A stretch of DNA of 64,000 bases from Cetorhinus maximus (taxonomy: Eukaryota). The stretch's first letter is position 1. Every line of letters starts with the position of its first letter. This document shows positions 8,374 through 61,414 of this stretch, piece after piece. The translations under genes and the position numbers were made by a program. The stretch is from the NCBI RefSeq assembly GCF_964194155.1, contig NC_135901.1:22444001-22508000 (forward strand), given 5' to 3'. The notes beneath the pieces are model-generated. The model was not told the DNA's origin. It worked only from the letters and a program-made list of their open reading frames with translations, and did no database searches.

Positions 8374-9276
8374 ATGGAGAAACCATGGAAATGTGAGGAC
8401 TGTGGGAAAGGATTCAGTTACCCATCCCTGCTGGAAAACCATCGACGCAGTCACACAGGGGAAAGGCCATTCATCTGCTCTGTGTGTGGGGAGGGATTTA
8501 CTCAGTCATCTGGCCTTTGGTCACACCAACGAATTCACACTGAGGAGAAGCTATTCAGCTGCACTTCCTGTGGAAAGAGGTTCAGACACTCTTCAGCACT
8601 CACTGTACACCAACGCACTCACACTGGGGAGAGGCCATTCACCTGCTCCGAGTGTGGGAAGGGATTTACTCAGTCATTCCACCTTCTAACACACCAGCGA
8701 GTTCACACTGGAGAGAGGCTGTTCACTTGCTCTGTATGTGGGAAAGGATTCACTGGATCATCCCACCTGCTGTCACACCAGCGAATTCACATTGAAGAGA
8801 AACCATTCAGTTGCACTTCCTGTAGAAAGAGTTTCAGACAGGCATCCTCCCTCATTTTACACCAGCGAGTTCACACTGGGGAGAGACCATTCATCTGCTC
8901 CGAGTGTGGGAAGGGATTCACAGTTTTACCCACCCTGCTGAGACACCAGCGAATTCACACTGGGGAGAAGCCATTTAGCTGCACATCCTGTGGGAAGAGT
9001 TTCAGGCAGTCATCCAACCTCACTGCTCACCAACGCACTCACACTGCAGAGAAACCGTTCACATGCTCCGTATGTGGGAAAGGATTCAGTCGGTCATCCA
9101 ACCTCACCGCACACCAGCCAGTTCACACTGGGGAGAGGCCGTTCACTTGCTCGCTGTGTGGGAAGGGATTTGCAAAGTCTTTCAACCTACTGACCCACCA
9201 ACGCACTCACACTGAGAAGAGGTTATTCAACTCTCGGTGTGTGGGAAGGGATTCACTCAGTCACAATGCCTCCTGA
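8374..9276 (+). CDS. Tandem C2H2 zinc-finger protein A1 (10 fingers; 11th frameshifted), no N-terminal effector domain
   Basis: 300-aa ORF of CxxC...HxxxH repeats with TGE(R/K)PF linkers. Splice acceptor ttttccag at 8020, AATAAA at 9521. A 1-bp deletion near 9232 shifts the last finger (ancestral stop about 9297). Confidence 0.85.
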
Positions 9277-9821
9277 GACATCGGCAAGTTCATAAGTGAC
9301 TGCAGGGGTTGGATCCTGCTGTTCTTGCTGCTTGTAAGCTTGTTTAGTATTGATAGTCTGGCAATATTTTGTTTCTGCTGATGTTAACAACCCTATAACT
9401 GGCTGGAGTTTAATATTCTGGAGATGTCACTGATTTTCAGGACTGCAGTGTCCCTTTTTAAAAGCACCATCTGTGATCCTTCCTTTTAATTTTAAAAACT
9501 TTCAGTAGGAACCCCTTGACAATAAAATTATGAACTTTTACTACAATCGTAAATTGATATTTGATGAAAAATCTACAATTCAGTGTCTGAAAGATTTAAC
9601 TGCAGGGATCTAAATATTTTTTTTCAATGCCAATGGGAAGAGGATAACCAGGGAAAGAGTAGGGCCCATTAGGGACCAATGGGCCTTGACATCTTGACCA
9701 ACATTCAAGGCTATGGGCCAAGCGCTGGTAAATGGGATTAGGTAGGTAGGTCAGGTGTTTCTCACGTGTTGGTGAAGACTCAATGGGCCGAAGAGCCTCT
9801 TCTGCACTGTGTGATTCTGAG

Positions 9822-10230
9822 AAGATTTCAGGTGTGACTGGAAAAATGCTGAGACACTCAAACCCTGGTTAGAGCACACCTGAAGAACAGTGTTCAGTTC
9901 TGGGCAACAAACATCAGGAAGGATAGAATGGCCTTGGAGGGAGTGTAGCACATATTTACCTGAGTGATCTGAGCTCCAAGGGTTAAATTACAGAATGAGA
10001 TTACACAGAAGAGTTACAGAGTCATTATGGCACAGAGGAAGCCATTAGGCTCAGTGAGTCCATGCCAGCTATGTAGAGCAATCCAATCAGTCCCATTCCC
10101 CTGCTCTATCCCCGTATCCTTGCAAGTTTATTTCCCTCATGCTTCTGTCCACTTTCCTTTTGAAATTACTCACCATGTCCATTTCCACCCCCCTCATAGG
10201 CAGTAACCTCCAGGTCATTACCACTCACTG
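9822..10230 (+). repeat. Composite direct repeat, copy 2
   Basis: Collinear with 6805-7195. Confidence 0.7.
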
Positions 10231-11035
10231 TATAAAAATATTCTTCCTCACATCTCCCGCACTTTTTACCCAAAATCTTAAACCTCTGTCCTTGAGTCCT
10301 TGTACGATCAGCTGATGGGAATAGCTTTTCTTTGTCCACCATATCTAAACCTGTCATAATCTTGTACACTTCTACCAATCTCCCCTCAACCTCCTTTGCA
10401 GGAACCATTCTGGTAAATCTCCTCTGTGCCTTCTCAATGACCTTCACATCCTCCCTAAAGTGAGGAGACCAGAACTGGATGCAGTTCTCAAATTGTGGCC
10501 TAACCAGAGCTTCATAAAGAATTCAACATAACTTCCCTGTTTTTGTTCTCAATATCACCATTTATGAAGCTCAAGATCTAATCGTCTTTGCTAATCACTC
10601 TCTTAATACATTCTGTCACCTTCAGAGATCAAAGTCATGAAGCCTCAGGCCCCTCTGTCCCTGCACACTCTTTAGAGCTGTGCCATGAATAATATTTTCC
10701 CTCTCCCTATTCCTCCTGATAAAATACATCACCTCGCTGTGAGGGTTGTAATCCCTGGAATTTATAAGATTAAGAGCTGATTTGATCAAAGTTTTTGGGA
10801 TATTAATTGGAACTGACAGGATAGATAGAGAGGAACTATTTCCACTGGTTGGGGAATCTAGGACGAGTGGGTGGAGGCTAAATATAGAATCAGGTTCTAG
10901 CGCCTTTTCAGGGAGAGAGTTCCCGATCAGAACAACTCTCTGTTGGTGCACTTCCCTGTTTTTGTACTCAGTACCTCTATTTATGAAGCCCAAGACCCCA
11001 TATGCTTCACTGATACCCCCTCAATCTGTTCTGCC
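10020..11035. mobile_element. CR1 3' fragments in both orientations
   Basis: ORFs KAQRRFTRMVP...VEVYKIMTGLD (-), GFINRGTEYKNRE (-) and DRIDREELFPLVGESRT (+). Confidence 0.8.
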
Positions 11036-11039
11036 ATAG

Positions 11040-12133: not shown

Positions 12134-12270
12134 ACTGGGGGAAAGAAAATGCCCGTTCACAGATTGGTCTCGATGGCGGCTGGTTTACCCAGAATCCCCA
12201 TGGGTCAGAAAGTCCCCTGTCAATGAGAACGGGAACCCATAGCGCCGGAATAAGGGCCGGGCTGTGCTCT
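12134..12270 (+). promoter_or_regulatory. Short CpG-containing promoter remnant upstream of B1
   Basis: attgg (CCAAT), gatggcggc (YY1-like) and ttacccagaatcccc (ZNF143/Staf-like) within ~130 bp. Confidence 0.35.
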
Positions 12271-12990
12271 GAGGCAGGGGCACAGCTGTGCGATGTTACT
12301 CAGGTGGAAATGGGTGGTTTTAGTGATCTGTAGTCAGAAGCTCAGTTTGGGCTGAAATATGACAACAAGATTGCGAATATTCTGGTTCAGCCTCAGAGAG
12401 CTGGTTAGGGAGTGGAGACAATGGCTTTCATTTTCCCAACGTTTAAATGGAGGGAATTTCTGCTCATCCAGTACTGGATGTCAGACAAGTCAGGACGGTG
12501 CGTGAGTTGGAGGTGATGGTGTTCAATGACACCTGTTACCTTCGTCCTTCTAGGTGGAGGAGGTTGAGGGTTTGGGAGATTCTGCCAAAGTTCTGGTCGA
12601 GCTGAAGATGTATTAAACACATCTTCACCCCCTGAATCGCCCACCTCTCTCTCTCATCCCATGGAGGCCAGAATCTTGTATAGGCCCAGACTGGGTGGCA
12701 GGTTCCCTTCCCTGAAGGACATTAGTGAACCAGTTGAATTTTTAGGACAATCCAGCAGTTTTCATGGTCACTTTTTCCTAGTGCTGGCCCCACAAATTAC
12801 TAGATTCATTCAGCTCAGTTTCACAACCTGTTTTTGTGGGTTCTCTCTCACTCCCTTTTTTCTGTTTTAAATCAGTTTCACAGGGGATTAGAAGGGGAGG
12901 ATTTGCAGTCAGGAAGCAGAAACAAAACATCACAGCAGAATCTGACAGTCACCCAATTTATCGTAACCTGAATATCATTTGATTTTGAAC

Positions 12991-13548
12991 ATGGAAAGAA
13001 AAAGCACCGTTCACATTGCGGAGAAACAGTACACGTGCTCTCTGTGTGGACGAGGCTTCAACCAATCATCTGGCCTGTCAAGACACAAGCGCAGCCACAC
13101 CAGGGAAAAACCGTGGAAATGTGGGGACTGTGGGAAGGGATTCAGATTCCCGTCTGAGTTGGAAATGCTTCGGCGCAGTCACACTGGGGAGAAGCCGTTC
13201 ACCTGCTCCACGTGTGGGAAGGGATTTACTCTTTCATCCAACCTGCTGAGCCACCAGCGAGTTCACACTGACGAGAGACCTTTTAAATGCCTAGACTGTG
13301 GGAAGTGCTTTAAAAGTTCCTGGGAGCTGATGTACCATCAGTGTGTTCACACTGACAAGAGACCATTTAAATGCTCTCACTGCGGGACTGGGTTCAGGCG
13401 ATCATCTCAACTCATTGTACACCAGCGAATTCACACTGGGCAGAGGCTGTTCACCTGCTCCACTTGTGGGAAGGGATTCACTCATTCACCCCACCTGCTG
13501 AGACATCAGCGAGTTCACACGGGGGAAGAGACCGTTCATCTGCTCTGA
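12991..13548 (+). CDS. C2H2 zinc-finger gene B1, truncated to 6 fingers by a frameshift (possible pseudogene)
   Basis: ATG at 12991 after acceptor tttcacag (12883). Finger 2 has lost a His (LEMLRRSH). A +1 insertion at ~13526 (gggggaagag) shifts the frame; four more fingers follow out of frame to ~13861, the last with CGA>TGA. Confidence 0.7.
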
Positions 13549-14059
13549 GTGTAGGAAGGGTTTCACTCGGTCATCCCACCTGCTGACACACCAGCGAGTT
13601 CACACTGGGGAGAGTCCATTTAGCTGCCCCCAGTGTCGGAAGGGATTCACTCAGTTATCTAGCCTGCTGAGACACCAGCAAATTCACAATGGGAAGAGGC
13701 CATTTTCCTGCCCTCAGTGTGGGAAGAGATTCACTACGTCATCCAACCTGCTGACACACCAACGAATTCACACTGGAGAGAGGCCATTCACCTGCGCCCA
13801 GTGTGGGAAGAGATTCACTCATTCACCCCACCTGCTGAGACACCAGTGAATTCACAAGTAACGACAGTGATGGGATTTTGCTGTTCATCACATCTAGGAC
13901 TGAATCATGTTCATTGGGGTCTGTTTCTGCTGATGTTAATAAACTACAGCCCACTTACAGGGTCTAATCTGGCGAAAAGTCAAATAAATTAGTTTTGTGT
14001 TAAAGACACAGTGTGTTGAATCTTTTTAATATCACTAACACAAGTTAGTTCCTTTTGAA

Positions 14060-19785: not shown

Positions 19786-20907
19786 TTACTTGTGAACTCG
19801 CTGGTGTGTCAGCAGGGTGGATGACTGAGTGAATCCCTTCCCACACTCAGAGCAGGTGAATGGTCTCTCCCCAGTGTGAACTCGCTGGTGCTCAGTGAGG
19901 TGAGATGATCTCCTGAACCCAGTCCCACAGTGAGAGCACCTGAATGGTCTCTCGTCAGTGTGAACACGTTGATGGGACATTAAGACCCCGGAACTTTTAT
20001 AGCACTTCCCGCAGTCTGGGCATTTAAAAGGTCTCTCCCCAGTGTGACCTCGCTGGTGTATCAGCAACCTGGAGGACTGAGTGAATCCCTTCCCACACAC
20101 GTGGCAAGAGAATGGCCACTCCCCAGTGTGAACTTGCTGATGTGTCAGCAGGTCGGATGTCCGAGTGAATCCCTTCCCGCACTTGGAGCAGATGAACGGC
20201 CTCTTCCCAGTGTGAACTTGCTGATGTATCAGCAAGGTGGATAACTGCGTGAATCCCTTCCCACAATCAGAGCAGGTAAACGGTGTCTCCCCAGTGTGAA
20301 TGCGCCGGTGTGTCACCAGGTGGGATGACCGAGTGAATCCCTTCCCACACTCGGGGCAGGTGAATGGTCTCTCTCCAGTGTGAAGTCGTTGGTGTACAGT
20401 GAGTTGAGATGACCACCTGAACCCAGTCCCGCAGTGAGAGCACCTGAACGGTCTCTCATCAGTGTGAACATTTTGATGGGACATCAAGTCCCCAGAACTT
20501 TTGAAGCACTTCCCACAGTCTGGACATTTAAAACGTGTCTCGTCAGTGTGAATGCGCCGGTGTGTCAGCAGGTTGGATGACTGACTGAATCCCTTCCCAC
20601 ACTCAGAGCAGGTGAACGGCCTCTCCCCAGTATGAACTCGCTGGTGTCTTGTCAGGTGGCATGATCGAGTGAAACCTATCCCGCAGTCAGAGCAGGTGAA
20701 TGGCCTCTCCCCAGTGTGACTGCGCCTGTGACTTTCCAGCTGAACTGGATAATTATATCCCTTCCCACAGTCTCCACATTTCCACAGTTTCTCCCTGTTG
20801 TGACTACATTTGTGTTTTGATAGGTTAGATGATCGGCTGAAGCCTCGTCCACACACAGAACACGTGTACGGTTTCTCTCCACTGTGAACGGTGCTTTTTC
20901 CTTCCAT
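19786..20907 (-). CDS. Tandem C2H2 zinc-finger protein B2 (13 fingers)
   Basis: Intact ORF from the ATG at 20907 ([13 protein letters not shown]). All C/H ligands are present. Two copies of the KCPDC/RCSHC finger pair. Confidence 0.9.
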
Positions 20908-21439
20908 GTTCAAATTCCGATGATATTCTGGTTATGATAAATTGGGTGACTCTGTCAGATCCCAATGTGATGTTTGGTTTCAGCTTCCTGACTGCAAATC
21001 CTTCCCTTCCAATATCCTGTGAAATTGATATAAAACAGAAAAAGAGAGTGAGACAGAACCCAGAAGACACAAAGTTAGGTTGTGAAATTGAGCTGAATGA
21101 ATCTGGTAATTTGTGGGGCCGGCACCAGGAAAAATTGACCATGAAAACTGCTGGATTGTCGTAAAAACCCAACTGGTTCACTGCTGTCCTTCAGGGTGGG
21201 AATCTGGTCTGGGCCTAAACAAGACTCTGGTTCTATTTGTGGAGAGAGGGTGTGTGTGAGATAAAGAGAGGTGAGAGGCAGGTGGTGAAGGGGAAAAATT
21301 TGATATCTATAATTTCACAAGAACGTTGACAGAAGCACCCAAACCCTCAGATTCCAACACCTAGACAGACCAGGGTATGTGAACACCAGCACCTCCAAGT
21401 TCCCACCCAAGTCACGCACCATCCTGACTTGTCTGACGT

Positions 21440-22440
21440 CAAGTACGGGATGCGCAGAAATTTCCTCTGAAGCTGAACCAGATTGTTCACAACCATGGTG
21501 TCATATTTGACTCCCAGATGAGCTTCCAACCAGATATCCACATCATCACCAAGGCCGCCTATTTCTACCTCAGTAATATGGCCTGACTCCACCCGAGCCT
21601 CAGTTTATATCCCGCAGAAGCCATTATCTATTCCTTTGTTACCGCAAGGCTAAACTATCCTAACACACTCCCAGTCAGCCTTCAACATTAAACCATCCCC
21701 CTCCACCCCCATAATCTTGAGGTCGTTCAAAGCTCTGTTGCTTGTGTGTTTAGTCGCACTGTCTTGTTCACCCACTGCCACTGTGCTTGCTGACCTACAA
21801 AGGCTCCCAGTTAAGAAGCACCAACTTTTAAAATTCTCAAACAAAAACAAAAATAGCTGGAAAAACTCAGCAGGTCTGACAGCATCTGCAGAGAAGAATA
21901 CAGTTAACGTTTCGAGTCCGTGTGACTCTTCATCAAAACTAAGGAGAAATAGAAATGAGGTGAAATATAAGCTGGTTGAGGGGGGTGGGACAGGTAGAGC
22001 TGGATAGAGGGCCAGTGATAGGTGGAGGCAAAGAAGAGATTGCCAAAGATGTCATAGACAAAAGGACAAAGGATAAGGTTCTCATCCTTGTTTTCCTCCA
22101 TGGTTATGATCATTCCTGTCTCCACAATCTCCACAACCAGCCACACAATCTCCAAGATCTCTCCACTCATCTAATTCCAGCCTCTTGAGAATTCCCAATT
22201 TTAATCGCCATCAGTGACTGTTCCTTCCATTGCCTAGGCCACAAGCTCTGGAATTTCCTTCTTAAACCTCTCTGCCTCTCCACGTCATTTTCTTCCTATA
22301 AGATATTCCTTAAAACCTATCTCTTTTGGTCACCTGCCCTAATATCTCCTTATGTGGCTGTGGCAAATGTTACTTTGTAACATTTATGTGAAATGCATTG
22401 GAAAGTTTTATACTGTTTAGGGCACAATATAAATACAAAT
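21440..22440 (+). mobile_element. L2 3' fragment in the B2 intron
   Basis: gctgaaccagattgttcacaacc...catcaccaaggccgcctatttc...aagctctggaatttcc...ccctaatatctccttatgtggc. Confidence 0.75.
21840..22075 (-). mobile_element. Penelope-like 3' region with hammerhead motif, nested in L2
   Basis: Minus strand ttgatga-a-gagtc-acacg-gactc-gaaac-gtt-aac (21902-21940). Confidence 0.75.
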
Positions 22441-22569
22441 GATTGTCACTGACTTGGACATATACCATTGTTCTGCCTCATCAATAAGACATTGTAACTC
22501 AAAGTATGAAGCAGCTTGATGGACAATTGTTCACATTTTGTCACTGGAAAAATTTCAATAACATTGCTC

Positions 22570-23040
22570 CCTACAAAGATGGAGGCCGCGCATGCGCCCT
22601 GCTGCAAATTGCCCCCAATAAAGATGGCGGCCATTAATCCGGGTCTGGAACTGGGAGAAAGCGGCGGCCCTGCTCTGTGCAAAAGAGGGGAACGATCCCG
22701 GGTACCGGTTGGTTGTTTTTTGAGGTTTACGGTCTACATAACATTTACGAAGCCTATTCAACCACCGGCATGATTCTGCCATCGCTCCACCCCACCATCT
22801 CACCCTCTTCGCCTTTACCGAATGCGAATCCGAGATAAAAAGCTTCTCTCCATCGCCATTAATCACACTGCGCATGCTTCACTCAGCCCAGCCCTGCCCC
22901 GCCCCTTATTCACTCCGATTGGTTGGAGGACCAGCCGCTTCGACGCGCCTACAGCCCCGCCCTCTCCTTTCCTATTGGTCTGGATCTGCCGTCAATCAGC
23001 CAAGCATTGTGAGTTGTCAGGTGAGAGGTCACTTTCGTGA
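22570..23040. promoter_or_regulatory. CpG promoter of B2, apparently bidirectional
   Basis: aagatggcggcc (22621), gcgcatgcgc (~22588), GC boxes and two attgg CCAAT boxes (22890-22980). Confidence 0.65.
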
Positions 23041-23049
23041 GCCGGTTAA

Positions 23050-26000
23050 TAAAAACATAGGAATTAGAAGCAGGAATAGGCCGTTAAGCTCTTCGAGCCT
23101 GCGCCGCCATTCAATATGATCATGGCTGGTCTTCTATCTTAATGCCATACTCCCACTCTCTCCCCATACTCCTTGACGCCTTTAGAGTTTAGAAATCTGT
23201 CTGTTTCCTTCTGAAATATATTCAGTGACTTTGCCACCGCAGCCCCCTGTGATAGAGAGTTCCACAGGTTGACCACCCTTTGAGTGAAAAAATTTCTCCT
23301 CATTTCAATTCTAAATGGCCTACCCCGTATCCTGAGATTGTGACCCCTTGTTCTAGACCCCACCGACCCACCCCCACCTCCCTGCCCCCCGCCACCAGGC
23401 AGAGGAAACGTCATCCCTGCATCCAGTCTGTCCAGCCCTGTCAGAATTTTATACGTTTCAATGAAATCCCCTCTCATTCTTCTAAACTCCAATAAATACA
23501 GGCTTTGTTGGCTCAATCTGTCCTCATACAACAATCCTGCCATCCCAGGAATCAGTCTGGTCAACCTTCGCTGCACCCCCTCTATGGCAAGTATATCCTT
23601 TGTTAGGTGAGGAGACAAAACTTCACACAATACTCCAGGTGTGATCTTACCAAGGCCCTGTATAACTGCAGTAAGACATCCTTGTTCCTGTACTCAAGTC
23701 CTCTCGCAATGAAGGCCAGCATACCATTTGCCTTAACAGCTCGCTGCACCTGCATGCTTGCTTTCAGTGATTGGTGTACAAGGACACCCAGGTCCCTTTG
23801 TACATCTACAGTTCCCAATGTATCACCATTTAAATAATACTCTGCCATTCTGTTTTTCCTACCAAAGTGAATAACTTCACACTTATCCATGTTATACTGC
23901 ATCTGCTGTGTATTTGCCCACTCACTCGACTTGTCTAAATCACCTTGAAGCCTCTTGACATCCTCCTCACCACTCACATTTCCACCTAGTTTTGTGTGGT
24001 CAGCAAACTTGGAAATATTACATTTGTTTCCCTCCTCCAAATCATTGATATATACGGTGAATAGCTGGGGCCCAAGCACTGATCCCTGCGGTACCCCACT
24101 AGTTACCACCTGCTATTCCAAAAAAGACCCATTTACTCCTACTCTCTGTTCTGTCCACTAACCAGTTCTCAATCCATACCAATATATTACCCCCAATCCC
24201 ATGTGCTTTAATTTTGCACACTAACCTCTTATGTGGGACTTTAACCTTTCTGAAAATCCAAATACACCACATCCACTGGTTCTCCCTTATCTATTCTGCT
24301 AGTCATGTCCTCTAAAAACTCCAGGAGGTTTGTCAAACACGATTGCCCTTTCATAAATCCATGTTGACTTTGTCTAATCCTGTTGATATTTTCCAAAGAT
24401 CCAGTTATCACGTCCTTCATAATAGATTCTAGCATTTTCCCTACCACAGATGTTAGGCTAACCGGTCTGTAATTCCGTTTCTTCCCTCTTTTTTTAAATC
24501 GTGGGGTTACATTTGCCACCTTCCAGTCTGCCGGGACTATTCCAGAATCTACAGAATTTTGGAAGATGACAACCAGCGCATCCACTATTTCCATGGCCAC
24601 CTCCTTTAGTACCCTGGGATATAGATTATCAGGCCCTGGGGATTTAGCAGCTTTCAGTCCCATTAATTTCTCCAGCACTGTTTTTTTTAAGTAATACTAA
24701 TTTCCTTCAATTCCTCCTTCTCATTAGACCTTTGGTTCCCTAGTATTTCTTGGAAGTTATTTGTGTCTTCCTCCATGAAGACAGAACTAATGTAGTTGTT
24801 TAATTGCACTGCCATATCCTTGTTCTCTATTATAAATTCTCCTATTTCGGACTGTAAGTGACCTACATTTGTCTTCACTAATCTTTTTCTTCTTACATGC
24901 TTGTAGAAGCTTTTATAGTCCTCTTTTATGTTCCTTGCAAGTTTACGCTCATACTCTATTTTCCCCTCTTAATCTCTTGGGCCTCCTTTGCTGAATTCTA
25001 AATTGCTCCCAATCCTCAGGCTTGTTATTTTTTCAAGCAACTTTATATGACTAGTCTTTGGATCTAATACTACACTTCATTTGTTTTGTTAGCCATGGTT
25101 GGGCCACTTTGTGGTTTTGCACCAGAAAGGAATATATAACTGTTGCAATGCATACATTCATTCTTTATATATTAGCTATTGCCTATCCACCATCATCCCT
25201 TTTAATGACATTCCCCAATTTATCTTAGCCAGCTCACACCTTATACCCTTGACTTCCCTTTGTTTAGATTTAGGACCTGAGTTTCAAATTGGACTACTTT
25301 ATTTTCCAACCTAAGGAAGAATTCTCTCATGTTATGGTCACTGTTCCCTAAAGGACCCCACACCACAAGATTATTAATTAACCCCTTCTCATTGCACAAA
25401 ACCAAATCCAAGATAGCCTGTTCCCTAGTTGGTTCTTCAACATACTGGTCTAAAAAAAATCTCATACAGACTCCAAGAATTCATCCGCCACAATGTTATT
25501 GCTGATTTGGTTTGCCCAGTCTATATTAGATTAAAGTCACCCATGATTACTGTAGCACCATTGTTATATGCATCTCTAATTTCCTTTTTAATACTGTCCC
25601 CTGCCTTACCACTACTATTTGGAGGCCTGTACACAACTCCCACTAATGTTTTCCACCCCTTGTTGCTTCTTAGCTCCACCCAGACTGATTCTACAACTAG
25701 ATTTTCTCAGCCGATATCCTCTCTCACTATTGCACTGATTTCATCCTTAACTAACAATACCACTCCACATTCTTTTCCTTTGTGCCTGCCCTTCCTAAAT
25801 ATGGAATACCCTTGGATATTCCGTTCCCAGCCTTGGTCACCCTGCAGCTGTGCATTTGTAATCACAATCAAATCATAGCTGTTTACTTTTATTTGCACTA
25901 TTAATTCATCTACCGTATTGTGAATGCTCCATGCATTCAGAGCCAGTGCCTTTGGAGTTGTCTTTATTCACATCTTCTTTTGTACTATTGCCCTATTTGC

Positions 26001-26110
26001 TGCTATCCCCCGTTTCCTCAGCCTTCCACTTTTGCTTTTTACTTCCCTGTCTTTCATGTCTATCTTTGTCTCCCTCTTCTGTGTCTCCCACTCAGGTTCC
26101 CATCCCCCTG
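23050..26110 (-). mobile_element. CR1 LINE, near-complete degraded ORF2 (EN+RT) with 3' end
   Basis: GDQGWERNIQGY, KSPGPDNLYPRVLKE, NYRPVSLTSVVGK, VYLDFQK, SGVPQGSVLGPQLF, FADHTKL, RRMRGDFIETYKIL. Confidence 0.92.
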
Positions 26111-26114
26111 GAGT

Positions 26115-26295
26115 CTGTGGGCTGTAGTGCAGATGCCAATGATTGTGATTTGGGGGATCCCATGGAATCCCCTCTGGGGCAGCTTTCCTGGTGAGCCAGT
26201 CTGCCTGGTTATTACCATCACCCTCTTCACTAACTCCTGCTGCTGATGTACCTTCACCTTACAAACAGCAATTTGTCCTGGACACTTACCAGCAA
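26115..26295 (+). repeat. Unclassified ~170-bp duplicated segment (second copy 40040-40205)
   Basis: tgccaatgatt...ggatcccatggaatcccctctgg...ctgcctggttattaccatca...aatttgtcctggacac is present at both sites. Confidence 0.75.
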
Positions 26296-27364
26296 CATCC
26301 CGAATCATTCAGAGTTTGTAGTGGTGACTGAGTGGTTTCCTTTCTGTTGTCGAGAAGCCATATGTTTTTTGCCAGGACGAAAGATTCTGCATGAGGGAAT
26401 TACAACTAGAGGAGCTTTCAGAATAGTGGTGCTTCTCTCAGTAACGGTTTGAAGGGCTGTGATGATGCTTTCTAGGCTGAATATTGTGGTGGTTATTTAA
26501 TAAGAATATTACAGCTGTCATGAGGAATCAAAGACACAGAACAAGTCTGGCACAGACTTTGTTTATAAAACAAAGATCCATCCAGATGAACAATGGAGTC
26601 TAACAATGATGTGGCTTTTACTGTTTCATTGTACATGGCCCCTTTCACCTGACATGTATGTGAGGTTCTTTCATACTGCAACATCCCAGCCAATTCTTAA
26701 TTGTGAGGTTGCAGGATATTAATTCATCTACTCTATTACATCAGCGATACTCCCTTAATTGACCTTGTATTAAAAATGTCACTGTGGTATGTGGGGTATG
26801 TAGAATTATTGAATTAAACTCTACCAGGTAACTCTGTGCGCTTAATTAACCAGTGAGCTCTTCATATCTGCTTAGTACACTGGGCAATCGATCTTTGCAC
26901 AAGGGTGAGTATGTCTAAGAGCTGTCCAATTGGAAAATCTTCTCCATTCACCTCTTGCATTACGACAGCAGACTGACAGCAGACTGCTCTGACTCCACCA
27001 GCAGGGCTGTGAAATCAATTTTAAAATCTTGCAAAGAGCCAGCACAGGCATGATGGGCCAAATGGTTTCCACCTGAGCTGTATCATTCTATAAAGCAGTG
27101 AATATTCAGTATCTGGAGATAAATGAGAGAGGAACCATTAAGAAAAGCTTTATAAGTTCTGCGTAGTTCCACAGCAGAGCAACGGTTTGAATCACTGAGA
27201 AATAGAACATAGCATTTGCACCCGTTCTCAAGCATGTATGTGATTTCTTAAGTTAACGTATCCCAATTTTTAACAAAATTATTTTTCATTCCGTGTTTGG
27301 AGAATCAATGGCGCTACTGTTACCCAATATGCTCGGCGGCTGTGAATGTGCCTTATTAACGGTA

Positions 27365-27805
27365 CAGGAGCCCAGTGCGCAGGTGCAATGCTGGATTCCA
27401 TCTCGGGCATGCGCAGTGTCACTTTGATCAGAGCCCTGTGAGTGCTTTGGACGGTTTTTTCAGCGGGTAAGAGCTGGTGGGGCAGAGTGAGGAACAGAGC
27501 CGGGAGTCCTGGGTGGGGCGGGTGGAGAGAGGGGAGATTTTATAAACAGCCGCTGGAGGCCGTAAACTCCGAATTAGACCCTGCAGGTCCGGCGTTTGTA
27601 CTTCCGGGGCTTTTTCTCTGGAACAGGCCCAGATTAACGACCACCATCTTTGTTCAGCGCTGAGCAGAGCGCGTGCGCAGCAATCTTGGTGACGCAACAG
27701 AGGGTGGGCGGGGCTCCAGGTTCCCGGTAAGCAGCAGATTGACAGGTCCGGGTTAACGGCCGCCATCTTTCCAGGAGCCAGGTGCTTTAGGACGCATGCG
27801 CAGCG
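27365..27805 (+). promoter_or_regulatory. CpG promoter/first-exon module of B3
   Basis: cagtgcgcaggtgca, gcatgcgcag (twice), ggggcgggtgg and taacggccgccatctt. Same module as 33340 and 42020. Confidence 0.65.
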
Positions 27806-27819
27806 ATCCTAAGAACGGA

Positions 27820-28285
27820 AGACATCAGAATTCGGAGCAGGAATAGGCCATTCGGTCCATCGAGCCTGCTCCACTGATGAAATAAACTCATGGCTGATCT
27901 GATTGTTCCTCCTGCCCCCATAATCCTTGAGTCCCTTCTAGACTGAGCTTCCATTGCTCATTGGGGAAGAGAATTCCACAGACGAATGACCTTCTGAGAG
28001 AAGAAATTTCTCCTCATCTCAGTGTTAAATGGGAGACTTCTTAGTTTTAAACACTGCCCCTTAGTTCTAGATTCTTCCTATGAGGGGAAACACCTTTCAG
28101 CATCTATCTGTCTAGAGCCCTCAGAATCTTATATATTTCAATAAAATCTTCTCCCATTCTTATAACTCCAATGAGTACAACCTCTAACCTTGCTTCAAAC
28201 GACAAACTCCCTCATCCCAAGAATGAGACTAGTGAACCTTTACTGAACTGCCTCCTGTGCAAATAATAAGTCTTAAGTATTCCTG
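27820..28285 (-). mobile_element. CR1 3' end
   Basis: ggagcaggaataggccattcgg...gaagaaatttctcctcatctc...ccctcagaatcttatat. Confidence 0.8.
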
Positions 28286-28499
28286 GGACTGGAAAAAGGA
28301 GGGAATGTTGTGAATTTCTATCCTGGACTAACAGTGATGGATTTTGGAAACTTTTTACAGGGGGTTAGAAGGGGAGGATTTACACACAGCAAGCACAATT
28401 CAAGAGAAAGGTTTGTCTATTCTGAATTTCTAACCGCTACTGACACTTATGACTCTTGTAATCTCCTTTCACAGGGAGCTAAAGATTTGAAAACTGTGA

Positions 28500-28597
28500 T
28501 ATTTTTCTCTGACTCAGTGCTTCTGATATCTTTCCAACTGCAGGCTCCAGCAGGAGATTTTAAATTTGAATACAGTGAAATTGTTTCGGAGGTGAGT
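28500..28597 (+). other. Putative short non-coding exon conserved in type B genes
   Basis: cagtgcttctgatatctttcca.ctgcaggctccagcaggagattttaaa...gag|gtgagt. Paralogous copies on the - strand at ~58205-58290 and ~63665-63755. Confidence 0.45.
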
Positions 28598-29589
28598 ACT
28601 ATTGAACATTCATCTACACTTTGGAGCTTTTAGTGCTGTGCTCTGGCTCCATGGCTCTGGAGCTTGTGTGGCCCCTGTGGATCTGAATCCATGTCCATCT
28701 ATTGCTCTGTTTCACCTCTGCCCTCCCTGATCACCTTTCTGCCATGGTCTAACTTCCTCTGCCTGTAATAATGGTTGTAATTTAACCATGTTTGGTATTT
28801 TACTGTTCTTTCTACAGTTACTGCCTGACCTGCTGAGTACTTCCAGCATTTGCTCTTTTTATTTCAGTTTTACAGCAGCTGCAGTATTTTACTTTTTTAT
28901 TCCAAGTGTTTCCCTCAGAACTGAGTCTAGAAACACAGATAGACCAATTAAGAACTGATTGGTAATGGGCTGGGTGTTGGTGCAAAGGTTGATCCTCAGC
29001 CCCCAGAATGGGTCCTTTTTCACAGAATCATTGAATGGTTACAATACTGAAGGAGGCCATTTAGCCCATCGTACCCGTGCTGGCTCTCTGCAAGAGCAGA
29101 TCAGTTAGTCCCACTACCCTGCCCTTTCCTCATAGCCCAGTAGTTTTTTTTCTCTCTCCAGGATCTTATCTAATTCCCTTTGTTTTGTTGCATTAGTTTG
29201 AGCTGGAGTGGAGATGGAGGAGAAGCTGCTGGGTTTAACCTCAAGGACTTTGGAAGCTAGTTGGGAGCAACGATTTTAGTTGTGAAACTGTCAAGGGAGG
29301 AAGATTCCAGGGGAGGTCTGGTTGCTAAACGGACATTTAGGAACAAGCATTTCTTTAGATGCTTCAATCTATTTTACATATACATATTTTAAAAGTTTGT
29401 GGAATTTGGGTGACACCAACAAGACCAGCAGCAGATATTGTCAATCCCCAGTTATCTGTGGAGAAGATGATGTTTGACCTTCTTGAACCGCTGCAGTCGG
29501 TATGGTGAAGGTGCTTCCACAATGCTGTTCGGTAAGGAGTTACAGGTTATTCACCCAGTGGTGATGAAGGAATGGCGATATATGTCCAA

Positions 29590-30240: not shown

Positions 30241-30389
30241 GTTGTCTAAGTTGAAGGGAAACTTGCAGGCGATGATGTTCACATACACCTTCTACCTTGG
30301 TCCTTCCAGGTGGTTGAGCTTGACGCTTTGGGAGATTCTGTTACCTTTTGGCCAAACTGTAGATTTGTAAAAGGACTCTCTCATCCGCT

Positions 30390-33750: not shown

Positions 33751-33759
33751 TGAGAGGGA

Positions 33760-42019: not shown

Positions 42020-42460
42020 CAAGCTCAGTGTACAGGTGCAGTGCTGGACAGTATCTGAAGCATGCCCAGTGTTGCTTTGACCAGAACCATGCAAGTGCTG
42101 GATGCGCTCTTCAGGCAAGTGAGCTGGTGGCATGCAGGGGATCAAGGCTTTAGAAAAACCTGGTGAAGGCCACAAGACCTGAATAAGAACCTGCAGGGCC
42201 CACATTTGCCACTCTGGGGTTTTTTCCCGGGAACAGGCCCAGGTTGATAGCTGCCATCTTGCTTCAGGAAGTAGCCCAGCAAATGCGTGGCCATCTTGGT
42301 GAGGGAACAGGGAGTGGGTGGGGCTTCAGGGTCCCAGTGACCAGGAGAGAAAATTATTAAGTCATTGATTTCATTACCAGTCTGCACACAAGTGAGAACT
42401 GAACCCAGCCAGAGTAGAAGGAGGGAGAAAACTGGGGAGTGGAGGAAAGGAGTGGTGCAA
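42020..42460 (+). promoter_or_regulatory. CpG-decayed copy of the promoter module
   Basis: tgtacaggtgca, catgcccagt and tgatagctgccatctt, versus tgcgcaggtgca, catgcgcagt and taacggccgccatctt at 27365-27805. Confidence 0.55.
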
Positions 42461-42494
42461 TGAGTTTGGTTCTCATCACAAGGAGTAAAGCAGC

Positions 42495-42900
42495 AAGACG
42501 CACAGCCAAGTGAGAGTGTTCCAGTGCACTGGCTGTGGAAAGAGCTTTAACCAGTTCCACAGCCTGAACAACATCACACCATTCACAGCAGAGAGAAACC
42601 ATACACGTGTTTTGTGTGTGTGGACCAGGTTTCAACTGGTTATCCAACTTAGAGAGACACAAGGACACTGACAACATGGAGAATCTGTGAAAATGTGAGG
42701 ACTGTGGGAAGGAATTCAATTATCCAAGCTGGAAAGTAATTGGCGAACTCTCACAGGGGAGAGGCCATTCACTTAACCTGTCTGCTGGAAAGGATTCACT
42801 TAGTCATCTCGCCTGCTGTTACACCAGCAAGTTCACACAGGGGAGAGGCTAGTCACCTGCTGTTTGCATGGGAAAAGAATCAGTCAGTCATTTACCAGCT
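42495..42900 (+). pseudogene. Type A zinc-finger pseudogene A3psi
   Basis: Leader fingers, then atg gag aat ctg TGA aaa tgt (MEKPWKC>MENL*KC), followed by 2-3 frameshifted fingers. The acceptor module is deleted. Confidence 0.8.
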
Positions 42901-47924: not shown

Positions 47925-48515
47925 TCACTTGTGAATGCACTCGTGTCTCAGTAGGTGTTGTGACTGAGTGAATCCCGACCCACACAAGGAGCAGGTGAAC
48001 GGTCTGTCCCTGGTGTGAACTCGCTGATGTGTCAGCAGTTGAGATGACCAATGGAATCCCTTCCCACACACGGAGCAGGTGAATGGCTTCTCCCTAGTGT
48101 GAGTACGTTGGTGATCATTGAGGTCAGTTGACTGCCTGAAACTCTTTCCACAGGAAGTACAGCTGAATGGATTCTCCTTCGTGTGCTTTTGGTGGTGTGA
48201 CTGGAGGGCAAATACCTGAGTGAATCCCTTCCCACACACGAAGCAAGTGAATGGTCTCCCACCCGTGTGAATTCGCTGGTGTTCAGTGAGGATGGATGAA
48301 GACTTGAACCTCTCTCCACAGGTTGTGCAGCTGAATGGCTTTTTCTCAGTGTGAACTCGCTGGTGTGACCGAAGGCCGGATGACCGAGTGAATCCCTTCC
48401 CACACACTGAACAGCTGAATGGCTTCTCCCCAGTGTGAATGCGTTGATGGATTTCCAGCCGGGATGAATAGGTGAATCCTTTACCACAGTCCTTACATTT
48501 CCATGGTTTCTCCAT
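47925..48515 (-). CDS. Tandem C2H2 zinc-finger protein A4 (7 fingers), closest paralog of A1
   Basis: ggcaccATGG start; FSCTSC/FSCTTC fingers as in A1. 3' UTR 47640-47920 matches 9300-9595. AATAAA on the - strand at 47701-47706. Confidence 0.85.
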   Translation of the reverse strand: MEKPWKCKDCGKGFTYSSRLEIHQRIHTGEKPFSCSVCGKGFTRSSGLRSHQRVHTEKKPFSCTTCGERFKSSSILTEHQRIHTGGRPFTCFVCGKGFTQVFALQSHHQKHTKENPFSCTSCGKSFRQSTDLNDHQRTHTREKPFTCSVCGKGFHWSSQLLTHQRVHTRDRPFTCSLCGSGFTQSQHLLRHECIHK

Positions 48516-49339
48516 GGTGCCGGTATTTTTTCTCTCTCTCCAGGCTGGACAATCAGTTGAACCTTTACCACATCACAACATGTGCACAGTTTCTCCCCAC
48601 TGTGAATGATCTGATGTTTTTTCAGGCTGTGTAACTGGTTAAAGCTCTTTCCACAGTCAATTCACTGGAACACTCTCACTCGGGTGTATGTGTCTTGGTG
48701 ATTTTCCAGTCATAATGTTTGAAACATTTCCCCACATACAGAACAGATAAACATTTCTCCTTCCACATTGAAAGCCTGATGATATTCAGGTCCTGATGAA
48801 TCGAGTGACTCTGTCAGACCATGCTGTGATGTTAGATTGATTTACAGGCTTCCAGTCTGTAAATCCACCCATTCTAATACCCTGGAAAAGGAATTTACAA
48901 AACTCATCACTGTGAATACAGGATAGAAATTCTGAACAGACAAATCTAGTTTCTATGGAATATGCTATCCTTTCGTTCCTGCAAAGCAGTAAATCGTCAT
49001 CCCTCACAGTCTCCCTCCTCCCCATGCTGGAATCCAAACCCCAGAGTGACCAACTGTACAGTATTTTACAGAATTGTCCCATATTTGAGAGTCAACTGTC
49101 CAGGTGCCGGAACACTGTTTGTCCCACAAATTGGACCTTTCTGGTCGCGCCCTATGCAGTACCCTGAGGCCTACTGCTTCTGTATTCAAACAGCTCCGGC
49201 AGCTAATTCCCCTCATTACCTCCACCCCCACCCCACCCCTCACCAACTCTGGCAGCACCCCACACAGCATCCCACCACCCACTTGTATGGACTCCCATGG
49301 CAGGCTGTCCCTCAATTTTCTCCATAAGAGTTGGTTATC

Positions 49340-50510
49340 CTGCCAAACCCATCACACCATTCCTTTCCTCACTCCCAGTTTTATCCCTCTCTGTACTCTG
49401 GCTGGGTTCCGTTCTCAAATACCTGTGTGGAAAGTGAGAATATCATCAATGAATCGATCATTTTCTCTCCTGGTCACTGGGACCCTGAAGCCCCGCCCAC
49501 TCTCTGATGTTTCGCCAAGATGGCCGCACAGAAAGTTGAAAGTCCCAGAGCTGCAAACACGGGACCTGCAGGTTCTTGTTAGGGGTTTGGGGCCTCCAGC
49601 GAGTGTTTCTGAATCCTTCCCTCCCACAGATCAGATTCCTCATTGATTGGAGCCCAAAGTGTAACCTCTTATTTATTGTCCCCCCTCTCCCATCCTCTGA
49701 TGTGAACCATCCTCCACTCGCTGACCCAGGATGGTGGCCGTTTACCTGGGCCTGTTCCCGGGAGGGAGAAGCCCCGCAGCTGCAAACCAGGAGCTGATAA
49801 TTATTCATAACGGTTACTCCAGCTCACAATACCCGGGGAGTGATTGACGGGACGGACGGACCAATAGGAAGAGTAGATGGGGCTGGAGGACCGAACGAGA
49901 GAGCCTGGTCCTCCAACCAATCGGAGAGAATGAGGGGCGGGGTTGAGTCATTGTCTCCGCAGGCTCCCAGCTGCACATTGTCCCCGATAAAGGTAGCGGC
50001 CGTTAACCGGGGCCTGTGTCGGGGTAAAGCCCGAGCAGTTGTAGCCGGTTCAAATCATACACGAGCTTCGGATTCGGGACTTGCAGCCTAGACGAGGTGT
50101 TTATGAATCCTCCCAACCCACCCGCCGATTCCTTCCCTCCTTCATGACCCAGCCGGCGATAACTCACCGGCTGAGAATTTCGATACAACCATCTCAGTTC
50201 ATCACCATCATCGGCAGTGCGCATGCTCTAGCTCACACTGCTCGGCTGATTGGCAGCAGCTCCGGACCAATAGGTAGAGGGGACGGGGCTGGAGGACTGC
50301 GTGCAATGGAGTGAGCGGCTGGTCCTCCGACCAATCGGAATGAATGAGGGTCGGGGCTGAGCCCGGATCTCCTTCATTGGCTGAGACTCTGCATCATTTT
50401 GGAAGCTGATTTGTCTCAAACTCCAGGAGAAAAGTGGACCTTTCTGTTTGTGGCTTGAAACAGATGAAACCCTGTGGGTGTGGAGCAAAAATTTCAACAT
50501 TTGTTAGTGA
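49340..50510 (-). promoter_or_regulatory. CpG promoter and 5' modules of A4 (CCAAT/GC block duplicated)
   Basis: 50230-50510 is the reverse complement of 3670-3950. A second CCAAT/GC block lies at 49840-49945, and aagatggccg at ~49517. Confidence 0.7.
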
Positions 50511-54591: not shown

Positions 54592-55632
54592 CTAGTCAGT
54601 GTGAACCTGTTGGTGTTTCAGTAAATTGGATGAGGTAGTGAATCCCTTCCCACAATTGCAGCAGGTGAATGGCCTCTCCCCAGTGTGAACTCGCTGGTGG
54701 GTCAGCAAGTGTGATAAGCAAGTGAATCCTTTCCCACACACAGAGCAGGTGAATGGCCTCTCCCCAGTGTGAATTCGTTGGTGCATCAGCAGGCGGGATG
54801 AAATACTGAATCCCTTCCCACATTCAGAGCAGGTGAAAGGACTCTCCCCAGTGTGACTGTGCTGATGTACAGTGAGTTCAAATGATCGCCTGAACCCAGT
54901 GCCACATTGAAAGCACCTGAACGGTCTCTCATCAGTGTGAACACGTTGATGGGACATCAGTTCCCCAGAACTTTTATAGCACTTCACGCAGTCTGGGCAT
55001 TTAAAAGGTCTCTCAGCAGTGTGAACTCGCTGGTGCGTCAGCAGGCGTGATGAACATGTGAATCCCTTCCCACACTTGGAGCAGGTGAATGGCCTCTCCC
55101 CAGTGTGACTGCACTGGTGAGTGAGCAGGTGGGATGACTGAGTGAATCCCTTCCCACAGTCAGAGCAACTGAACGGTCTCTCCCCAGTGTGAGTGCGCTG
55201 GTGGGCTCGCAGTTGGGATGACTGAGTGAATCCCTTCCCACAGTCAGAGCAGATGAATGGCCTCTCCCCAGTGTGAATTCGCTGGTGTGTCAGCAGGTGA
55301 AATGAGGTAGTGAATCCTTTCCCACACTTGGAGCAGGTGAATGGTCTCTCCCCATTGTGATCTCGCTGGTGTTTCAGCAAGCTGGATGAGTGAGTGAATC
55401 TCTTCCCACACTCAGAGCAGGTGAACGGCTTCTCCCCAGTGTGAGTGCATCGATGAGTTTCCAGGTCAGACGGGTAATTGAATCCCCTCCCACAGTCCTC
55501 ACATTTCCATAGTTTCTCCATTGTATGACTGCACTTGTGTTTCGACAGGCCAGATGATCGGCTGAAGCCTCGTCCACACACAGAACATGTGTACAGTTTA
55601 TCTCCACTGTGAACGGTGCTTTTTCCTTCCAT
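54592..55632 (-). CDS. Tandem C2H2 zinc-finger protein B4 (12 fingers)
   Basis: Intact ORF from the ATG at 55632. Terminates at GAG>TAG inside a TDERP linker. Confidence 0.88.
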
Positions 55633-58755: not shown

Positions 58756-58891
58756 ATAAAAGCAAAAAACTGCGGATGCTGGAAATCCAAAACAAAAACA
58801 AAAATACCTGGAAAAACTCAGCAGGTCTGGCAGCATCTCCGGAGAGGAACACAGGTTAACGTTTCGAGTCCGTATGACTCTTCAGCAGAAC
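58756..58891 (-). mobile_element. Penelope-like tail with hammerhead motif
   Basis: gtt-ctgctga-a-gagtc-atacg-gactc-gaaac-gtt-aac (58854-58891). Confidence 0.75.
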
Positions 58892-58899
58892 GAAGTAAA

Positions 58900-59400
58900 A
58901 ATCCACTCGGGCCTGGCACCGGGAGAAAGTCCGCAGCTGCCGTTCCGTTCGGTGCAAAGGCACTTTCTTATTGGGGGCGTTGAGGCCTCCACTGGGTATT
59001 TGTGAAGCCTCCCCTCCCACCCACTACCCCTAACGCTGCCTCCGCTTATCCGCCTCCTTCCCGCCTGAAGATGAAGCAAACAAGCGTCTGTCCCTGGACA
59101 TCACCCGCACTGCGCATGCTCCAGATCACAAAGACAGGGGAGTGATTGACGGCAGCTCAGGACCAATAGGAAGAAGGGGCGGGACTGGAGGACCGAGCGG
59201 GAGAGCTGGTCATCCAACCAATCGGAGTGAATGAGGGGCGGGGCTGATCCCGGATCTCCCTCATTGGTTGAAACGCTGCATCATTTTTAAAGCTGATTTG
59301 TCTTAAACTCCAGGAGAAAACTGGACCTTTCTGTTTGTGGCTTTAACCAGATGAAACCCTGTGGGTGTGGAGCAAACATTTCAACATTTATTAGTGAAAT
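58900..59400 (-). promoter_or_regulatory. CpG promoter of B4
   Basis: tgcgcatgc (~59111), ccaat (twice) and ggggcggg (twice). 59220-59400 is the reverse complement of 3670-3845. Confidence 0.7.
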
Positions 59401-59469
59401 GGATTCATTCAGGACAGACAGCAGGGATGATTTATTTGCAGTGTAGTGAGAAAGGGAGAAAATGACCAC

Positions 59470-60440
59470 GAACTGAATAATCACTAACAGGATATTCATC
59501 TCCTCTCTCCGCAGCAGATGAGCAGTGGGTGGAGACAAGTAACGTTATGGAGGTGGAGATATGTGGTATTTGTGATGGTGTGGATAAGTGGTGGGAAAGT
59601 CATCTTGGGATCAAATAGACATCAAGATTCTGAACAGTGTGATTCAGCCTCAAGACAGTTCCTAGAGAGGGATGGACTTGGTCGTTAGGGAACAGAATTT
59701 GTAGTGGTGACTGTAGACAATAGCTTTGGTCTTCCCAATTGTTAATCGGAGGAAATTTCTGCTCATCCAGTACTGGATGTTGGATAATCGGTTTGATAAT
59801 TAAGTAACAGTGGAGGAATGAAGAGGGATGGTGCTGAAGTAGAGCTGGGCATTGTCAGTGTTCATGTGAAAACTAACAAGGTGCTTTTGGGTGGTGTCGC
59901 CTAGTGGCAGCATGTAGATGAGAAATAGGAGGGACCAAGTCTCGATCCTTGGGGGACACCAAGTTCAAGGTCCTTGCAGAGGAAAAGCAGGTTGGAGATG
60001 GGGCAGTAGTTTGCAAGGATGGTGGGGGTCAAGGGTTGCTTTTTTTCAGGATGGTGATGATGGTGGATTTAGAGGTGAGAGGGACAATATCAAAAGAGAG
60101 AGACAACCATAAACAGTATTAGCTAAAATGGGGAAAATGGAGCGTCAGCAGTGTAGTGTGATTAGGAGTGAGGGACTAGGAGGTAGGTCTCATGGATAAG
60201 ATGAGCTCTGACGGGTGTTGATGGGAGATAGGAGAGAAACGGGGGAAAGATGCAAGTTCAGTGCTAAGACAAGGAGGAACTTTGGAGACAGTTTGGCCCG
60301 GTGGGATAGTGGAAGGGAGGGAAACAGCAGATGCAGCTGATCAGATTGTCCGAATCTTAGTGATGGAGAAGCTCCATGAGCTCCTCACACTTATTGTTCG
60401 AGGTGAGGATGAAGGAGATGGGGAGAGGGAGAGCATTTCA
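59470..60440 (-). mobile_element. L2 fragment downstream of B5psi
   Basis: Same 5' junction as the L2 after B1, B2 and B3 (caataagtgtgaggagctcatggagcttct). Confidence 0.75.
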
Positions 60441-60634
60441 AAAGAAACTAACTTGTGTTGAGATAGTAAAATGATTTGCCACACTGTGTTTAACACAAAA
60501 TGAATATATTTCACTTTTATCCAGAATATTAACCCCAATAACTGGGCTAGAGTTTATTAACATCAGCAAAAATAGACTACAATGAACATGGTTCAGTCCT
60601 GAATATGATTAACAGCAGAATCCAACCCCTGCAG

Positions 60635-61414
60635 TCACTCATGAACTCGCCGGTGTTTCAGCAGGTGGGATGACTGAGTGAATCTCTTCCCACACTCAGG
60701 GCAAATGAATGGCCTCTCCCCAGTGTGAACTTGCTGATGTCTCAGCAGGGTGGAGGACTGAGTGAATCCCTTCCCACACTCAGAGCGGGTAAACGGCCTC
60801 TCCCTCGTGTGGATGTACTGGTGTGTAGAGAGTTGAGATGATTGCCTGAACCCAGTCCCACAGTGAGAGCACATGAACAGTTTCTCATCAGTGTGAACAC
60901 GTTGATGAAGCATCAGTTCACTGGTACTTTTAAAGCACTTCCCACAGTCCAGGCATTTAAAATGTCTCTCCTTAGTGTGAACACGTTGATGGGACATCAG
61001 TTCCCAGGAACTTTTATAGCACTTCCCACAGACTAAGCATTTAAAAGGTCTCTCGCCAGTGTGAACACGCTGGTGCGTCAGGAGTTGCGATGACTGTGTG
61101 AATCGTTTCACACAGTCAGAGCAGGTGAATGGCCTCTCCCCAGTGTGAACTCGCTGATGCTTCAACAGGTTGTTTGACTTTGTGAATCCCTTCCCACACT
61201 CAGAGCAGGTGAACGGTCTCTCTCCAGTGTGACTGCGTCAATGAGTTTCCAGTTCAGACGGGTAACTGAATCCCTTCCCACAGTCCCCACATTTCCACAG
61301 CCTCTCCCTGTTGTGACCGCACTTGTGTTTGTCAGATGATCGGCTGAAGTCTCGTCCACACACAGAACACGTGTACGGTTTCTCCCCACTGTGAACAGTG
61401 ATTTTTCCTTCCAT
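60635..61414 (-). pseudogene. Type B zinc-finger pseudogene B5psi (9 fingers)
   Basis: ATG at 61414. Finger 1 has a 6-nt deletion, finger 2 has CGA>TGA (61238-61240) and finger 8 has C>R. Confidence 0.8.

Follow-up and report, generated by a model that had tools for sequence, protein, structure and literature searches.

Nine zinc-finger loci lie in a stretch of 64,000 nucleotides from the shark Cetorhinus maximus (contig NC_135901.1, labelled C24, 22,444,001-22,508,000; the window), and they belong to a zinc-finger family that is real, large, elasmobranch-wide and finger-only, with a selectively constrained lead finger of 23 residues. This finger, first or second in the array, opens with Trp-Lys-Cys (the WKC finger) and typically carries proline and glutamate at helix positions +1 and +5 (Pro+1, Glu+5). 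Its non-contact surface is under purifying selection, and Glu+5 is about as strongly conserved as the residues that bind zinc. The reading that we consider best, with roughly an even chance of being right on the sequence evidence, is that the lead finger is two-faced: its base contacts vary, and a small conserved face (Glu+5, Arg+9 and the Lys after the aromatic residue) would bind a partner that all paralogs share, a protein being the most plausible candidate. Positions +5 and +9 would face away from the DNA, going by the geometry of Zif268. Docking of a putative shared partner on the lead finger would give the family access to chromatin machinery with no need of a KRAB-type domain. The genes are predicted to begin with a short first exon that is non-coding and lies in a CpG island, and to be translated from an ATG in strong Kozak context.

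Selection on the lead finger

Loci were anchored on the splice acceptor and the 5' untranslated region (UTR) upstream of the fingers, and not on the finger itself. From 185 acceptor matches, 37 that could not be anchored, 5 duplicates and 27 poorly anchored matches were dropped, leaving 116 copies, 57 of which retain at least seven fingers in frame. Because the first search of the genome with its own sequence was biased toward the query, the statistics were moved to contiguous blocks (1.864 Mb) with 104 open reading frames (ORFs) of at least seven fingers, 86 of them with a Met before the first finger. Seventy-eight of the 104 combine a Met and a lead finger with an acceptor close by, and 76 of these form 38 independent paralog pairs. 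In the 86 ORFs the lead finger is first or second in 83, as counted with a profile trained on the 57 genes, and it is single in 81 genes and double in 2.

The signature lies far above chance level. Trp, Pro+1 and Glu+5 are present in 54, 50 and 56 of the 57 intact lead fingers, and occur 1, 16 and 10 times among the 597 other fingers of the same genes. The sequence-only reading of this DNA had first pointed out the signature; within the window the three residues and all four zinc ligands come together in only four of the nine loci (A1, A2, B2, B4). It had also called these residues unusual, and indeed they occur in only 1, 4 and 6 of 289 fingers of other animals; however, Pro+1 is present in two fingers of mouse ZFP568 (PDB 5V3M), a KRAB protein whose structure we take to be DNA-bound, and Trp is replaced by Tyr in two rays. 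The three residues are good family markers and not proof of a role other than DNA binding; for such a role Trp and Pro are weak evidence. A UBZ-type function was considered and rejected, with zf_UBZ matching none of five lead fingers at E values up to 1 and, weakly, two of five ordinary ones; the ESM Atlas returned generic C2H2 clusters only.

The constraint was measured in three ways that share genes and are not mutually independent. For 23 independent A-type pairs, set against context-aware neutral rates from the UTR, the surface of the lead finger shows 47 amino-acid-changing differences where 89.6 are expected, and Glu+5 shows 0 changes where 6.4 are expected. For the 38 pairs of all types, with fingers matched collinearly on third codon positions, the synonymous-normalised ratio for the surface outside core and contacts is 0.62 (0.49-0.76) for the lead finger, against 0.89 (0.81-0.97) for the ordinary fingers so matched. 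Amino-acid changes number 1 at Glu+5 where 9.6 are expected (p = 7e-4); at the Lys after Trp they are 2 against 8.6, and at Arg+9 8.5 against 18.5. A tree of 47 A-type genes was built from the UTR alone and used for a codon model, in which the surface of the lead finger has an omega of 0.39 and those of the next three fingers 0.95-1.12, and the lead value is below that of ordinary fingers in 49 of 49 subsamples. The expectation that the lead finger would prove the more constrained is therefore borne out on its non-contact surface. A plain Nei-Gojobori count gives 0.49 for a decayed finger of the UTR and understates omega here, and was therefore replaced by the context-aware expectation and the codon model; synonymous-normalised values are quoted because the UTR that serves as baseline changes less than the distal intron.

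The base contacts behave differently from this surface. At positions -1, +3 and +6 the ratio over the 38 pairs is 1.60 (1.34-1.93) for the lead finger and 1.84 (1.60-2.09) for ordinary fingers, a difference that is not significant, in values that are partly inflated by finger shuffling and fall to about 1 or below in the 12 closest pairs. The contact omega of the codon model is 1.48 for the lead finger against 1.8-3.0, and in the 57 intact genes the lead finger has entropies of 2.52 bits (helix -1) and 2.74 bits (helix +3), compared with 2.79 and 2.77 bits in the next one. The lead finger, which had been described as invariant, is not, and probably it still reads DNA. The clean split that had been proposed, between one unchanging finger that binds protein and variable fingers that read DNA, is unsupported because the lead finger's own -1, +3 and +6 diversify like the rest.

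Broken copies give a similar separation among the signature residues. Glu+5 is kept in 56 of 57 intact and 28 of 33 broken copies (p = 0.024), the last His behaving alike (p = 0.016), and no relaxation is seen for Trp (32/33 broken, 54/57 intact) or Pro+1 (31/33 and 50/57). Synonymous divergence, in multiples of that of the UTR, is 1.42 in the lead finger and 1.45 in ordinary fingers, and because the two are equal, gene conversion of the 5' end fails to explain the constraint.

Fixed signatures are not confined to this finger. A second type, the KSS finger, occurs in 37 of the 78 sampled genes, mostly of the B and C types, usually with an FRC finger after it. What sets the lead finger apart is mainly that nearly every gene has it, in one copy and at the N-terminal end.

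Upstream anatomy and the question of an effector domain

All eight non-relic loci of the window have a polypyrimidine-AG acceptor in common, 209-378 nt before the Trp codon, and because of this an upstream exon likely exists. The loci had been described as having a single coding exon, which agrees with the coding part and not with the exon that the shared acceptor implies. The leader that follows the acceptor resembles a decayed coding spacer and has in-frame stops or frameshifts in all eight loci; among 66 sampled genes with a located acceptor, the frame from acceptor to finger is open in 2. These two lie on C24, in the 44.75-44.85 Mb block (L191-L200) and the 22.24-22.44 Mb block (L101-L120), and are candidates for a remnant of an ancestral in-frame upstream exon, or for chance.

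In A-type genes the 5'UTR consists of about three decayed zinc fingers (window 8021-8373, 37879-38186 and 48516-48881). Of 55 such genes sampled, 44 share a stop 17 codons ahead of Trp; the predicted start Met is located in what was once the linker just before the lead finger. Short upstream ORFs are possible in this UTR. B-type genes keep one finger ahead of the lead finger and C-type genes none; the three layouts lost or decayed different upstream fingers, yet all of them kept the lead finger. The start ATG has a purine at -3 in 78 of 78 sampled genes and G at +4 in 76. For A-type genes at C24 26.9-31.1 Mb (L001-L040, L061-L100), similarity between copies is 0.82-0.92 in the 5'UTR and the final ~200 nt of the intron, above the 0.70-0.85 of the distal intron of the same genes, which suggests gene conversion or an RNA or DNA element.

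CpG islands lie ~1-4.5 kb upstream of six window acceptors, and at five of the six a GT donor follows shortly after a GCATGCGCA-type motif, one of the promoter motifs to which, we presume, the names NRF1 and YY1 belong. Since this pattern of motif plus donor is found in just 20 of 78 genes, against 8 on the antisense control, the first exons remain predictions.

As to effector domains, KRAB has no match on C24 and 4 matches elsewhere, all on two other contigs. None of 150 scored SCAN matches is on C24, a lower bound given 4,987 candidates. Pfam assigns only finger-type families to four window proteins (best 25 matches each). Within 4 kb upstream of the 78 genes no sense-specific conserved peptide was found apart from retroelement and intron sequence, and in 100 of the 104 long ORFs the open stretch ahead of the first finger is at most 52 amino acids. 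The proteins most likely consist of fingers only, because the leader frame is closed and KRAB and SCAN are not matched on C24. Hence the earlier statement that the loci lack an upstream effector holds, in the sense that no known effector domain could be joined in frame through the shared acceptor. Separately, C34 has, within 280 kb (9.12-9.40 Mb), three KRAB-like matches that score above the Pfam cut-off; that they are related to PRDM9 is a guess.

Family size and distribution

An exact 29-nt pattern of the lead finger has 1,058 matches genome-wide, against 0 for the control, and catches 48 of the 116 anchored lead fingers. From this sensitivity we extrapolate a family of ~2,500 copies, pseudogenes and unplaced contigs counted in. 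C24 carries most of the 150 matches listed in the first, query-biased search, and fingers occur in 12 of 18 single 10-kb pieces taken from C24 1-63 Mb, some of which were picked at known matches. Finger number changes quickly: 7 of the 12 closest sampled gene pairs already differ in it. Of 18 fingers without a match in close pairs none was a lead finger, a count that we did not use because the genes had been chosen for having a lead finger. The C24 blocks at 22.24-22.44 and 24.3-24.5 Mb are recent segmental duplicates with 1-5% UTR divergence.

The lead finger is found in Mustelus, Scyliorhinus, Heterodontus, Chiloscyllium, Cetorhinus, Pristiophorus and Carcharodon, and in the ray Pristis. The rays Narcine and Amblyraja have Tyr in place of Trp, with Pro+1, Glu+5 and HRR kept. 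In the fetched proteins Glu+5 is present in 30 of 33 W-x-C fingers, the three misses being unrelated non-WKC fingers. Pro+1 occurs together with Glu+5 in 6 of the 3,590 non-Trp fingers of 150 library proteins, which are no neutral sample, since they were found with the lead-finger profile; the list was ranked by finger number and consists mostly of long fused gene models. Three of the six are from Narcine or Amblyraja, two are shark-type lead fingers and one is from a lungfish (P0156), where it opens a finger run and could be chance or a deeper homologue.

The nine loci of the window

Six-frame translation recovered the nine paralogous loci (A1-A4, B1-B5) where the sequence-only reading had placed them, and the recognition helices quoted there are correct. 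Open frames of 7-13 fingers with clean or near-clean ends are found in A1, A2, A4, B2 and B3. The features are as follows; promoters and first exons are predicted, and their assignment to the genes is putative.

3801-4400, + strand: CpG island of A1, predicted promoter and short first exon; GT donor after 4060
8021-8373, + strand: predicted 5'UTR part of the A1 finger exon; acceptor 8021, spacer, decayed fingers with stops and frameshifts
8374-9276, + strand: A1 ORF, 300 amino acids (aa), 10 fingers, the final one frameshifted; lead WKC finger 8386-8454
12884-13849, + strand: B1, likely pseudogene; acceptor 12884, ATG 12991, frameshift after 185 aa (near 13530)
13114-13182, + strand: WKC finger of B1, with a His-to-Leu change
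19786-20907, - strand: B2 ORF, intact, 373 aa, 13 fingers; WKC finger is finger 2 (20784-20716); acceptor 21016
22601-23200, - strand: CpG island of B2, predicted promoter and first exon; GT donor after 22819
27301-28000, + strand: CpG island of B3, predicted promoter and first exon; donor after 27466
30991-32112, + strand: B3 ORF, intact, 373 aa, open; acceptor 30882; finger 2 at 31114-31182
33201-33900, + strand: CpG island of A2, predicted promoter and first exon; donor after 33456
38187-38945, + strand: A2 ORF, 252 aa, 8 fingers; lead WKC finger 38199-38267; acceptor 37879
42400-42900, + strand: A3, relic; decayed A-type 5' end, Trp codon turned into a stop, frameshifts, no acceptor match
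47925-48515, - strand: A4 ORF, 196 aa, 7 fingers; lead finger 48503-48435; acceptor 48881
49701-50400, - strand: CpG island of A4, predicted promoter and first exon; donor after 50168
54592-55632, - strand: B4 ORF, 346 aa, 12 fingers, then a stop; WKC finger 55509-55441; acceptor 55741
58801-59300, - strand: CpG island upstream of B4, predicted promoter; homologous place without a canonical donor
60635-61414, - strand: B5, likely pseudogene; ATG 61414, stop within the WKC finger after 58 aa; acceptor 61506
20532-20380 (-), 20028-19876 (-), 31702-31854 and 55005-54853 (-): KSS-then-FRC finger pairs

The lead finger of A4 keeps Trp and Glu+5 and not Pro+1, and in B4 decayed fingers run past the stop to ~53.7 kb. 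B3 had been said to keep an intact frame and to have lost the finger; the frame is intact and the signature helix is gone, but a hybrid finger remains as its finger 2, with a WKY N-terminal half, the first Cys missing and an ordinary helix, as might result from a crossover within the finger.

B2 and B3 stand head to head (19786-32112); the space that separates them holds two CpG islands and a LINE fragment. Broken fragments of LINE-type reverse transcriptase and endonuclease lie at 23139-24696 (-) and 36212-37024 (-), and like pieces occur throughout the window; such fragments between the genes are no evidence of targeting. At ~4330-4500 and at 28350, just downstream of CpG islands, are short duplicated acceptor-like stubs without fingers, possibly extra non-coding exons.

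Weighing the explanations

Several observations weigh against a two-faced finger. The lead finger is predicted to have the canonical beta-beta-alpha fold with Pro+1 at the helix start (pLDDT 91.5), Pfam takes it for a plain zf-C2H2, and a salt bridge within the helix between Glu+5 and Arg+8 or Arg+9 is conceivable. Over the 38 pairs Trp (4.5 changes against 8.9 expected, p ~0.06), Pro+1 (7 against 10.9, p ~0.15) and likewise Ser+2 do not reach significance, so that the strong signal is confined to a few of the 23 positions tested. The ratios of ordinary fingers are inflated by shuffling, and in the 12 closest pairs the observed over expected changes are 8/15.6 versus 122/121.5, on small counts. 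Surface ratios are about as low in KSS and FRC fingers (12 and 6 pairs, in classes defined by sequence), and B3 and at least one further hybrid copy keep open frames without the helix signature. A less probable reading is that the lead finger is an ordinary DNA-reading finger fitted to the first place of the array as a structural cap, where Glu+5 with Arg+8 or Arg+9 and the aromatic residue would stabilise an uncapped terminal finger or set the DNA register, and that the proteins act by binding alone or recruit through generic finger surfaces. The diversifying contacts and canonical fold agree with this, as does the constraint on both Glu+5 and Arg+9, which are four residues apart on one helix, and ZFP568 shows that Pro+1 is compatible with DNA reading. 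A cap is less readily reconciled with the B-type genes (14 of 78), where the lead finger is second and non-terminal and Glu+5 is still kept, with the other fingers, which fold although just 10 of 597 have Glu+5, or with a constraint on Glu+5 as tight as that on a zinc ligand. Surface salt bridges are usually less constrained than zinc ligands. That a protein of fingers alone can act is illustrated by ZNF146/OZF, which binds LINE-1 and for which the accessible part of PMC8896011 gives no identifiable extra domain.

The signature might instead be historical, if the first repeat escapes shuffling, gene conversion homogenises the 5' ends and ancestral residues persist without function. The higher likeness of 5'UTR and near intron than of distal intron would fit, as would the signature residues that are mostly as common in broken as in intact copies, and the fixed signatures of other finger classes. 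Yet the synonymous sites of the lead finger diverge at 1.4 times the UTR rate, as those of ordinary fingers do; codons -2, -1, +3 and +6 change freely and +5 does not, and conversion can neither pick single codons nor favour synonymous change; and Glu+5 persists to rays. We therefore find history improbable and, for Glu+5, largely refuted, though it may still account for Trp and Pro. Equally improbable in our view is an effector in an unseen upstream exon, joined in frame through a more proximal acceptor in the manner of KRAB and FiNZ genes, which would make the lead finger secondary. The conserved acceptor does imply upstream exons, the leader does look like a decayed coding spacer that is open in 2 of 66 genes, and exons that are small and far away frequently escape detection in such families, so that finger-only predictions may hide them (PMC2604467, accessible part). 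Against such an exon stand the stop shared by most A-type genes, the strong start context of the sampled ATGs, the lack of KRAB and scored SCAN matches on C24, and the lack of a conserved sense peptide upstream other than retroelement or intron sequence.

That a two-faced finger would dock a corepressor and that the proteins would act on transposons are further steps, taken only by analogy with the KRAB and FiNZ families. The broadest form of the idea, which we hold to be doubtful, is that elasmobranchs would have a zinc-finger silencing system of their own, the third in vertebrates after KRAB and FiNZ, in which thousands of finger-only proteins would recruit a corepressor through the Glu+5 face while the first finger reads DNA and the variable fingers target transposons.

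Cartilaginous fish have some of the largest zinc-finger repertoires counted (supplement of PMC10547256, with ORF counts for sharks and rays; 703-3,586 in sharks), and KRAB-domain families are reported missing from them (PMC8455134, accessible part), which raises the question of how their fingers act on chromatin. The present analysis narrows it to a 23-residue finger and one residue amenable to mutation, Glu+5. If the finger is a docking site, effector function would have arisen inside a DNA-reading finger and then been copied thousands of times; otherwise the finger still serves to recognise members of the family dependably in the annotation of shark and ray genomes.

Comparison with known systems

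The KRAB zinc-finger genes of tetrapods and lobe-finned fish resemble the shark family in their clustered birth and death, their single large 3' finger exon, their diversification at -1, +3 and +6 and their varying finger number (7-24) (PMC2604467, PMC10547256, accessible parts). Tandem C2H2 arrays with TGEKP-type linkers on one exon, in clusters, are likewise found in both. In contrast to KRAB genes, the shark genes have no KRAB exon, an upstream exon cannot join in frame, and the conserved N-terminal element is a finger that itself diversifies at its contact positions.

The cyprinid FiNZ-ZNFs of zebrafish chromosome 4q are similar in having hundreds to thousands of genes on one chromosome, a two-exon layout and a lineage-specific conserved N-terminal feature, and they differ in that FiNZ is an acidic domain of 28 aa on its own coding exon, whereas the shark first exon is predicted to be non-coding (PMC10547256, accessible part). 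A FiNZ-like upstream domain was not found, as judged without a FiNZ profile from a leader closed in 64 of 66 genes and the lack of a conserved upstream peptide. Derepression of transposable elements has been shown for FiNZ, and the shark family is known here from sequence alone. No shark is among the seven species with predicted transposon binding in PMC10547256, and the word is absent from its main text. We found no paper on this finger or the structure of this family in a search that stopped short of subscription journals and of supplement files 3-5 of PMC10547256, which could bear on novelty. TRIM33 has been proposed as a cofactor in fish (PMC11603059, accessible part).

Two single genes offer closer parallels to the proposed mode of action. 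ZNF146/OZF likewise has C2H2 fingers only, lacks KRAB and binds LINE-1, and is a single conserved mammalian gene, unlike the expanding shark family (PMC8896011). In Drosophila, finger 4 of Kipferl docks the Rhino chromodomain from within a DNA-binding array (PMC11245307), which serves as a model for the two-faced finger; Kipferl is a single ZAD-ZNF gene with a proven partner, and we liken it to the shark proteins by description, not by sequence. As in a docking finger, the surface of the shark lead finger away from the base contacts is constrained, most strongly at Glu+5. By its sequence features the shark family belongs to neither the KRAB nor the FiNZ genes, and an effector role for its lead finger is plausible.

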